Shown: piece by piece, positions 9,199 to 62,442 of the stretch
How positions within the stretch are numbered: position 1 is the stretch's first letter
How the letters are laid out: the number at the start of each line of letters is the position of its first letter
Origin: Octopus vulgaris
Lineage: Eukaryota
Direction: 5' to 3'
Assembly (NCBI GenBank): GCA_951406725.2
Contig: OX597838.1
Span: 6,200,001 to 6,264,000, forward strand
DNA length: 64,000 nt
Translations under genes and position numbers: made by a program
Notes under the pieces: generated by a model
What the model was told of the DNA's origin: nothing
The model's input: the letters and a program-made list of their open reading frames with translations, nothing else
Database searches by the model: none

Positions 9199-9244
<46 letters not shown>

Positions 9245-9329
9245 TGTGTATATATATATATATATATGTAGGTGTATATATATATATATATATATATATG
9301 TGTATATGTGTATATATATGCATATGTAT

Positions 9330-9370
<41 letters not shown>

Positions 9371-9442
9371 TGTATATGTGTATATATATGCATATGTATA
9401 TATATATATACATATATGTATATGTGTATATATATGCATATG

Positions 9443-9475
<33 letters not shown>

Positions 9476-9543
9476 ATAAATATATATATATGCATATATA
9501 TATATATGCGTGTGTATAATATATATATATATATATATATATT
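9150..9543. repeat. Compound (TA)/(TG) microsatellite
   Basis: Direct observation. Confidence 0.95.
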
Positions 9544-9859
9544 CCTTTTTAATACTTAAATAAAAATCATTTTCCCCAAAAATTAATACATTAACATTTG
9601 ATATTTTTCTCGGAGGTATGTTTTTCCTTCGGTTCTTCTTTGCTGTAAATGTTGCCATGTTGACATTTATGCCCACGGCTTATTCTATAGCAATTTCGCA
9701 GACATTTTACGTTTTATCAAATATTTCGAATCAGAAAATATTTTATTCTGCTACCTATTTGCAAACTATGTGCTACAATTGTATTTGTATCGCAGCACTT
9801 TTGTGACATAATTATAATTAATTAATATATATATATAAATCCATGTTGGTGTTTTTTGT

Positions 9860-12256: not shown

Positions 12257-12340
12257 TGCGTAGTTTCGGCATTTCCCATTGCCTCATCAATTAAGACATC
12301 TCGACTACGGCTGTTTCCGGACTCGTTTTGCCTCATGAGG
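12257..12340 (-). ncRNA. Two decayed hammerhead-like motifs in tandem
   Basis: Minus strand reads CTCATGA-GGC..GTCC-G-GAAAC-AGCC-GTA, then TTGATGA-GGCA-atgggaaa-TGCC-GAAAC. Both cores are mutated and stem I cannot be recovered. Confidence 0.35.
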
Positions 12341-56036: not shown

Positions 56037-56129
56037 ATGTGTGTGCGAGTGTGTGTATGCCCAATGCTGTTTGCTGTTGGTTTGTTTTAGTCCCTGTCAA
56101 TTAGCAGTACATACATATATATATATATA

Positions 56130-56332
56130 CTAAAAATAAGCAACAAGGATATCCATGGTAGTGTAGTACAATCGTTTCATGCTACTTCCTTTAATTAAAC
56201 CATGTAAGTATTACAATCACCCCATAAATATAAATATAATCACCCCATTTGATTTATATGGATAATACCATAGTAAATTTCTGGTGTCTTTAACTTAAAT
56301 ACCATATTAATCTGAATCTAAATTTTGCTGAA

Positions 56333-56335
<3 letters not shown>
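56130..56335. mobile_element. Short inverted PLE-terminus-like element in (TA)n, related to 61779-62400
   Basis: Shares AAGCAACAAG...TAGTACAATCGTTTCAT (hammerhead 3' half, minus strand) and TAATCACCCCA...TGGTG...TACCATATT with the 62-kb element. Flanked by (TA)n on both sides. Confidence 0.7.
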
Positions 56336-56389
<54 letters not shown>

Positions 56390-61733: not shown

Positions 61734-61781
<48 letters not shown>

Positions 61782-61921
61782 CAATAAAGATTCAAGTTAA
61801 TTTAAGTGAATTTACTTGAATATGGTACCTAACTTAGATGCACCAAAAAAACTATACTGTTTTAACAATACAATAATGTGGGGTGATTATAAGCGAGAAA
61901 GAAGCAACAAGAATGGATAGG

Positions 61922-62012
61922 TTTTAGTACAATCGTTTCATACAAGGACAGGCTTTATTAAAAGTTGCAAAAATTACAGCATATAAACGTGTCCTGTACT
62001 CATCAGCTAAAA
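61922..62012 (-). ncRNA. Type-I hammerhead ribozyme (minus-strand copy)
   Basis: Reverse complement of the 62275-62365 motif; TCATCAG at 62000-62006 and GTTTC at 61935-61939. Confidence 0.85.
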
Positions 62013-62274
62013 TACATGTGAGTTCTCTAGACATCCTATTGGTTGAGGCTATACTCATGAAGTAGATAATTAAGTAACATAAATAGATTTCCAAAGTTCA
62101 TTAAAGTTCTTTAAAGATGATGTACAGTCTTATCTGTACATCATCTTTAAAGAACTTATCTGTACATCATCTTTAAAGAACTTTAATGAACTTTGGAAAT
62201 CTGTTTATGTTACTTAATTATCTACTTCATGAGTATAGCCTCAACCAATAGGATGTCTAGAGAACTCACATGTA

Positions 62275-62365
62275 TTTTAGCTGATGAGTACAGGACACGT
62301 TTATATGCTGTAATTTTTGCAACTTTTAATAAAGCCTGTCCTTGTATGAAACGATTGTACTAAAA
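62275..62365 (+). ncRNA. Type-I hammerhead ribozyme
   Basis: Stem I TTTTAG (62275-80)/CTAAAA (62360-65); core CTGATGA (62281-87); stem II GTACAGGACA/TGTCC-t-TGTAT; GAAAC (62348-52); stem III AC-gatt-GT; predicted cleavage after GUA (A62359). Confidence 0.88.
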
Positions 62366-62394
62366 ACCTATCCATTCTTGTTGCTTCTTTCTCG

Positions 62395-62442
<48 letters not shown>

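Follow-up and report, generated by a model that had tools for sequence, protein, structure and literature searches.

The hammerhead motif at 62275-62365

The questions raised by this locus are whether a hammerhead-like motif with a long stem II is genuine, which element carries it, and what the long stem may do. The motif lies in a 64,000-nt stretch of Octopus vulgaris DNA (the window). The features that the initial annotation had claimed for it (CUGAUGA, GAAA, a stem II of ~60 nt, G62288.U62347, a 2-bp stem III with loop GAUU, and a GUA site) were all found where it had placed them:

62275-62365, plus strand: type I hammerhead motif, supported by sequence, a 19.4-bit match to RF00163, and covariation; cut predicted after A62359
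62275-62280 with 62360-62365, plus strand: stem I, 6 bp (from sequence)
62281-62287, plus strand: core CUGAUGA (from sequence)
62288-62347, plus strand: stem II, 60 nt, with a basal helix containing bulged U62342, an A/U-rich middle helix, and an apical hairpin
62309-62321, plus strand: apical hairpin UGUAA-NNN-UUGCA, kept in subfamilies A-E, B, and C
62328-62333, plus strand: AAUAAA, a candidate poly(A) signal located in the 3' strand of stem II and preceding the predicted cut by 26 nt
62348-62351, plus strand: GAAA (from sequence)
A62351-U62358 and C62352-G62357, plus strand: stem III, 2 bp, loop GAUU, with the GUA site and the predicted cut after A62359
62372-62398, plus strand: U/GU-rich tract and 3' end of the element, adjoining (TA)n; candidate downstream element

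For class membership, we found that the CUGANGA core, GAAA, A15.1-U16.1, and an NUH site are all present in 62275-62365. The three helices have their open ends at stem I; stems I and II covary, and the 2-bp stem III is invariant. The search with Rfam hammerhead models that had been proposed returned an RF00163 alignment covering exactly this segment, but the score of 19.4 bits (E 0.023 in a 196-nt search) lies below the gathering score of 34. This alignment places a 51-nt stretch where the model has 5 nt. In a scan of the whole window, where microsatellite matches swamp the motif, no type I hammerhead was present among the 150 of 285 Rfam matches listed. The CUGAUGA heptamer occurs in the window at chance level (8 observed vs. 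8.98 expected) and the 101-nt fold around the motif has ordinary stability (z -0.36), so the case rests on relatives.

The score under the gathering score and the ordinary fold stability would fit a chance look-alike or a decayed copy. We consider this reading highly improbable and already contradicted, since 44 of 49 family-A-type core-bearing matches (first loci) are letter-identical across the motif, a long-arm core-to-core pattern has 6845 matches in the genome vs. 5 in a reversed control, and the stems covary. By sequence criteria, the motif is thus a real dimer-type hammerhead of a Penelope-like retroelement (PLE), for which self-cleavage is predicted. Elsewhere in the window, a match to Hammerhead_3 (12258-12310, minus strand; 34.3 bits, gathering score 48.5) has the core UUGAUGA instead of CUGAUGA and is an unrelated hammerhead, probably decayed or differently wired.

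The host element and the structure of the locus

A whole related element (L031) in G000, the 2.8-Gb genome that holds the window, contains an inverted 5' duplication, a pLTR with a hammerhead, a 110-nt tail, a frameshifted RT-endonuclease (RT-EN) ORF, and a 3' region of 1.6 kb, and its second pLTR lies 4.6 kb beyond the first. Uninterrupted ORFs of 976-984 codons are found in L158 and L159, where one hammerhead precedes the ORF by ~200 nt and another follows ~4.6 kb later (direct pLTRs); the open frames of other copies have 970-984 codons. The single ORF encodes an RT and then a C-terminal GIY-YIG-type endonuclease, with YRDD and IY...YIG read from the sequence; a Pfam search with two pieces of the L031 ORF gave zero matches. 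The Hydra clade of PLEs is defined by RWK, DKT, CxCX5C, CxxC, and CxH features (PMC8557442). We found RWK and DKT motifs (IRWKTY and ADKTGN), a CxCX5C linker (CKCRIKSKC), and C-terminal CxxC (CQLC) and CxH (CVH), as well as the (TA)n insertion, pLTR, tail, and inverted 5' duplication of this clade. These features indicate that the host is a Hydra-clade PLE, a placement made by motifs and by likeness to Hydra-1_Obim judged by eye, the ORF tree being composed of G000 families only.

With this layout, the surroundings of the motif can be read as follows:

61735-61779, no strand: left (TA)n target tract (from sequence)
61780-61889, minus strand: PLE tail, 110 nt; lies between pLTR and ORF as a leader in full copies (L031)
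61888-62127, minus strand: inverted pLTR duplicate with a second hammerhead; 236/238 identical, core at 62006-62000
62129-62180, no strand: 26-nt direct duplication at the inversion junction (from sequence comparison)
62160-62400, plus strand: pLTR part at the 3' end of a Hydra-clade PLE of family A that is truncated on its 5' side; the same sequence lies on both sides of the RT-EN ORF in L031, L158, L159, and L162
62397-62437, no strand: right (TA)n target tract (from sequence)
56125-56340, minus strand: older fragment of a sister subfamily (B), with the tail and the hammerhead 3' half and no core (from sequence comparison)

The inverted hammerhead motif, which the initial annotation had overlooked, occupies 62012-61923, and the 3' arm of its stem I is one A shorter. 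The arms 61922-62127 and 62160-62365 are perfect, being 100% complementary over 206 nt; the right arm of this inverted repeat returned 1153 first-look candidates in G000, many of which are 100% identical. Based on the L031 layout, the window copy is read as a 5'-truncated insertion of a young Hydra-clade PLE with the usual inverted duplicate and tail. The relative at 56 kb is also 5'-truncated and lacks both the CUGANGA core and the 5' arm of stem II.

Several other observations were made on these elements. A long Asn-rich linker between the RT thumb and the endonuclease (L031:4900-5400 and relatives) brings the ORFs to 840-1090 codons, exceeding published members. A neighboring ORF (L031:3-1595, minus strand) resembles the APE-type endonuclease of a LINE, and further inverted repeats of 150-330 nt around the PLE (L031 2390-2717 with 9382-9709, and 2736-2882 with 9236-9382) suggest a nested insertion into another inverted element. 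At the 3' junctions of family A copies with (TA)n, G often replaces the T of the element where the tail is missing (14/25 tail-less junction matches, with loci partly redundant). An example is the junction at L031:2881, and the same change occurs in subfamily B; this G is possibly a target-site preference or a first-nucleotide signature of priming.

Traits shared with the clade

The G.U pair that opens stem II in the window motif replaces the usual G10.1-C11.1. Among G000 subfamilies, positions 10.1/11.1 hold G.U, U.U, G-C, A.C, or A.A; full copies of the sister subfamily to which the 56-kb relative belongs have U.U, not G.U. The position is simply relaxed rather than specially fixed, given that it varies by subfamily. 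An invariant U11.1 was ruled out by the 3218 matches of a second long-arm pattern that carry another base there (5 matches in the reversed control). These 3218 matches are dominated by the L144 family (G000:C11 and many others), which is very young and abundant, and has an 842-codon ORF and A.C at 10.1/11.1; its AAUAAA lies in an internal loop, where it is unpaired.

Such variation has precedents. U10.1.U11.1 is natural and tolerated in hammerheads (PMC3088659). In Hydra hammerheads, a U before GAAAC is found in most and is usually opposite U, GUA sites and palindromic stems III are common, G.U at 10.1/11.1 is found in Penelope-13_HM and Penelope-17_HM, and Penelope-13_HM also has GUA (PMC8557442 file S2). 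The long covarying stem II, and possibly the hexamer nested in it, is the new part, and G.U, GUA, and the palindrome are known clade traits; of the unusual architecture originally proposed, only the stem II length stands. Likewise, the U before GAAAC had been called a family trait and proved to be a trait of the subfamily, not an invariant of the family, with G-C, A.C, and A.A in siblings. Post-insertion decay as the origin of the loop III G.U was ruled out for family A, since young copies share this pair. The 56-kb relative that had been cited for the retention of GATTGTA is a coreless fragment of sister subfamily B. The loop III G.U could represent CpG decay between ACGAUCGU and ACAAUUGU that became fixed.

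A long and covarying stem II

Stem II spans 49-85 nt in 20/20 representatives, which were chosen for long stems. No published description of a PLE hammerhead with a stem II of 49-85 nt was found in the literature searched; two spike-moss PLEs have stem II regions of 45-55 nt, so long arms are not unprecedented. A short-arm pattern gave 788 matches in G000 vs. 107 in the control, such that long-arm matches are ~10-fold more abundant (6845 + 3218 vs. 788) with patterns that are not strictly matched.

Covariation was examined with 34 of 67 distinct matches, selected to represent subfamilies A-E, B, and C; subfamily D, deletions, and matches probably due to chance were excluded. In this alignment, 84.5% of cells are paired and both-side changes occur in 11/26 pairs. 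Covariation in stems I and II, which the initial annotation had named as a check, was found in 4/5 pairs of stem I and 6/13 pairs of the basal/middle stem II, compared with 1/6 pairs of the apical hairpin. The covariation score is 0.336 vs. 0.153 in shuffled alignments (0/500) and at most 0.106 when slid; two of the five covariation measures are not above shuffles (397/500 and 248/500), and relatedness inflates the remaining ones.

Folding gives a similar picture. From the 34-sequence alignment, unaided RNAalifold predicted stems I and III and the apical hairpin but missed the basal helix of stem II; in a 101-nt context, the pair probabilities of this helix are 0.70-0.99 except for one pair at 0.36. 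In the apical hairpin, 93% of cells are paired, one pair is U.G, U-A, or C-G, the flanking pair is A-U, C-G, or U-A across subfamilies, and the apical UG.AA is nearly invariant in the 34 sequences. Among the individual arms, 19/20 fold better than the shuffle mean (z -1.0 to -5.4) and one does not (+0.2). Taken together, comparison of sequences indicates that the arm is selected as a structure. An alternative helix between the stem II 5' arm and the cut site was ruled out (probability at most 0.02). In a separate Hydra-type family (L150/L151; G000:C13 and C5) that shares 46-47% identity with family A, the hammerhead core is the variant CCGAAGA and stem II measures 55 nt.

A palindromic stem III and probable dimer dependence

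As expected for a dimer-type PLE hammerhead, the motif has a short stem III with a palindromic loop and is present in both pLTRs. Stem III pairs with a probability of only 0.01-0.02 in the monomer ensemble. Its 8-mer differs by subfamily (ACGAUUGU, ACAAUUGU, ACGAUCGU, ACAUAUGU, ACACGUGU, and ACAGCUGU) yet remains self-complementary, and the palindromic stem III is kept in 20/20 representatives. Among the 67 distinct motif matches, 37 are perfect Watson-Crick palindromes and 24 more pair with two G.U (3 probable chance matches included); RATY loops account for 5442/6845 long-arm pattern matches. The family A 8-mer forms the weakest self-duplex among the six common versions (-5.8 kcal/mol, with sister palindromes at -6.4 to -11.1). 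In full elements, the two motif copies are in direct orientation on one potential transcript.

A dimer model for PLE hammerheads with a palindromic stem III has been published (PMC4209133; PMC6765202). That the 8-mer changes and stays self-complementary supports the earlier suggestion of probable dimer dependence, which is the same as this model. Overall, the explanation that we favor as likely is that the pLTR of a Hydra-clade PLE carries a type I hammerhead whose 60-nt stem II is conserved and in which the predicted cutting would probably take place only in the dimer. In the same genome, there are also tandem arrays with a ~545-bp period (G000:C1:33099609-33105376, C1:71597377-71603427, and others), in which each unit has a hammerhead and the perfect palindrome ACGUACGU; these are retrozyme-like repeats.

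Inverted pairs and probable RNA editing

The segment 61888-62400 folds into one long hairpin, in which the hammerhead helices have a probability of 0.0. Of the first 100 family A copies listed, 72 have an inverted partner no more than 11 kb away, and 4 have a partner in direct orientation. No run recorded as RNA was found to contain the stretch; it is contained in 14 contig sets of guessed RNA kind, and a DNA-like run from other individuals was available for comparison. On a 177-nt stretch, we found 19, 24, and 37 places with A>G or T>C in three RNA-like runs vs. 4 in the deep DNA-like run. A15.1, the hexamer, and the apical hairpin are all among the affected positions, and in the DNA-like set these sites are missing or nearly so; similar loose ends occur in a second contig listing. 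Among the 24 sites listed, the 5' neighbor is U/A in 22, C in 2, and G in 0 (p 0.002), which matches the preference of ADAR; Penelope is heavily edited in lizard (PMC5625713).

The evidence that the family is transcribed as dsRNA and edited is strong but indirect, as run kinds were guessed, individuals differ, and edited reads are not assignable to the window locus. The frequency of inverted pairs and the clustering of A-to-G changes indicate that the window locus is probably inactive dsRNA.

A candidate poly(A) signal in stem II

In the A-F/D group, all 16 representatives carry AAUAAA (11), AUUAAA (3), or UAUAAA (2) in the 3' strand of stem II, 16-26 nt before the predicted cut; these variants were accepted after they had been seen. 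TAAA is the sole 4-mer common to 16/16 representatives, and the U content at +12 to +40 is 46-68% in 16/16. A poly(A) site has a hexamer 10-30 nt before it and a U/GU-rich tract behind it, and the positions of the hexamer and the U-rich tract fit this geometry. The ORFs of the 4 of 16 subfamilies that are in the tree are 56-91% identical to family A. The hexamer is kept where the rest of the arm aligns no better than shuffles (A vs. F2 122/200; A vs. D 93/200), is paired in some folds and unpaired in others, and became AUUAAA at two different positions (subfamilies C and A3). Its chance of occurrence in shuffles (A[AU]UAAA in that window of positions) is 0.002-0.10 per sequence.

These observations led us to consider, as a tentative addition to the explanation favored above, that stem II carries a functional AAUAAA-type signal, with CPSF and the hammerhead cleaving at nearly the same spot. 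The persistence of the hexamer in 16/16 while ORFs diverge to 56% identity, beyond the alignable arm and regardless of pairing, the double origin of AUUAAA, the U-rich tract, and the low shuffle chance all argue for it, and the HIV-1 polyA hairpin provides a precedent (PMC2645353). By analogy with that hairpin, folding might tune signal use in the 5' vs. the 3' pLTR. However, the representatives are related and A/U-rich, with ten 6-mers present in 16/16 within one mismatch, and the post hoc choice of variants also counts against the signal. Inserted copies extend beyond the expected poly(A) site on its 3' side, which means that their templates were not cut at that point. The hexamer is absent inside four other long stems of 49-85 nt (L147, L130, L153, and L136), one of them being the 85-nt arm of the outgroup family (48% identity). 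Stem length thus does not require it, and the general idea that the long stem exists for the hexamer was ruled out by these four stems. Poly(A/T) loose ends were 0 among the 18 of 32 and 19 of 29 listed, in contigs that cannot show ends. With partial coverage of the literature, no link of a poly(A) signal to a PLE hammerhead was found; the wording "polyadenylation signal" does occur in the accessible text of PMC6765202.

A wider proposal, which we hold to be unlikely, is that stem II became a poly(A) hairpin, so that polyadenylation and dimer self-cleavage would compete for the same ~30 nt and decide between RT-EN mRNA and a cut, circularizable, or read-through copying template, with A-to-I editing of inverted copies hitting the hexamer and A15.1. 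Should the hexamer function in polyadenylation, a ribozyme arm would be tied to the choice of 3' end in a retroelement.

Predicted cleavage and possible alternative roles of stem II

Genomic starts at the cut site were not found: only 1/1013 copies lacks an A just before the site, and that one is an insertion, in a count that is blind to junctions supplying an A. Of 31 copies examined individually, two terminate no more than 7 nt from the cut site, and both show microhomology. Together with the frequent mismatch at 10.1/11.1, the TATAAA located ~16 nt before the site in family D, and the very low in vitro activity of PLE hammerheads (PMC4209133), the absence of starts would be consistent with a motif that no longer cleaves usefully and is instead a structural or DNA-level signal (e.g., a TATA-like promoter element of the pLTR) with a retained hammerhead shape. 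Such a loss appears quite improbable to us, as stems I and II show compensatory changes, which point to selection at the RNA level. The catalytic core, A15.1-U16.1, and H17 are invariant in 34/34 aligned sequences, which is weak evidence because the search pattern fixed these positions. Moreover, AAUAAA and AUUAAA are not TATA boxes.

The stem I probability is 0.0 in 200-240 nt contexts, so folding would need help. Stem II may be a platform that binds the RT-EN protein of the element or a host chaperone and thereby folds the ribozyme, in which case cleavage would be protein-assisted and dimerization secondary. In an Anolis PLE, the one member with published biochemistry among those considered, the hammerhead was cleaved only with protein present; it was dispensable for insertion in vitro, and no read ended at the site (PMC11167929). 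Apart from this precedent and the weakness of the active fold in longer contexts, the platform is favored by the apical hairpin, whose sequence is conserved beyond pairing. Nevertheless, families F, D, and G have a different apical sequence, and the palindromic stem III in all representatives points to selection on RNA-RNA pairing, which leaves a binding platform doubtful.

Returning to dimer-dependent cleavage, published PLE work suggests that two 8-nt palindromes on a more-than-unit transcript would pair into a stable stem III serving both cores. Cleavage after A17 would then yield a unit-length RNA, possibly circularized, and a lone motif copy would stay uncut. Under this mechanism, the long stem II would be a tolerated, structurally selected extension showing other signals (the apical hairpin and the AAUAAA-type hexamer), with no new catalytic fold. 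The window copy is probably inactive, and its read-through RNA would form a ~240-bp hairpin with the inverted twin and be edited by ADAR.

The role of PLE hammerheads has been called unclear in the cited work. This lineage is a ready test set: its ~10,000 copies belong to many subfamilies in which ORFs are intact, and natural series of compensatory changes exist at 10.1/11.1, in stem III, and in stem II. In addition, long-arm hammerheads are under the Rfam threshold, probably outside short-stem descriptors, and ~10-fold commoner, such that counts in animal genomes may be too low.

Comparison with known systems

Small PLE-associated hammerhead variants that cleave as dimers were reportedly described by Lunse, Weinberg and Breaker in 2017; these are compared here by description only. 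The HIV-1 polyA hairpin likewise places AAUAAA in a hairpin that is present at each end of a retroelement RNA, but it is no ribozyme arm, and its function has been shown whereas that of the hexamer here is hypothesized (PMC2645353). Stem II regions of ~45-55 nt are also found in PLE-X1_sMoe and PLE-X1_sTam, whose PLE hammerheads are marked as deviating (PMC8557442 file S2). In contrast to the elements studied here, they are spike-moss EN-minus elements with non-canonical cores and a long loop rather than a covarying multi-helix arm.

The Hydra-clade hammerheads (Craig et al., 2021; PMC8557442) share the type I form, the location near the 3' end of a (TA)n-targeting RT + GIY-YIG element, the U before GAAAC in most, G.U, GUA, and a short palindromic stem III. 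They differ in a stem II plus loop of ~10-26 nt (49-85 nt with internal helices here), a loop III of 1-3 nt (4 nt within an 8-nt palindrome here), and elements generally <3 kb (a ~4.6-kb unit with an Asn-rich linker here); the hexamer is not mentioned in the accessible text of that source. The minimal and variant PLE hammerheads (Cervera and de la Pena, 2014; PMC4209133) share the location in pLTRs, the palindromic helix III, the dimer model, a larger-than-usual helix II, and opposite-strand pairs 100-700 bp apart. Their helix II has 6-8 bp and a "highly conserved G10.1-C11.1," whereas the arm described here is far longer and its opening pair is relaxed.
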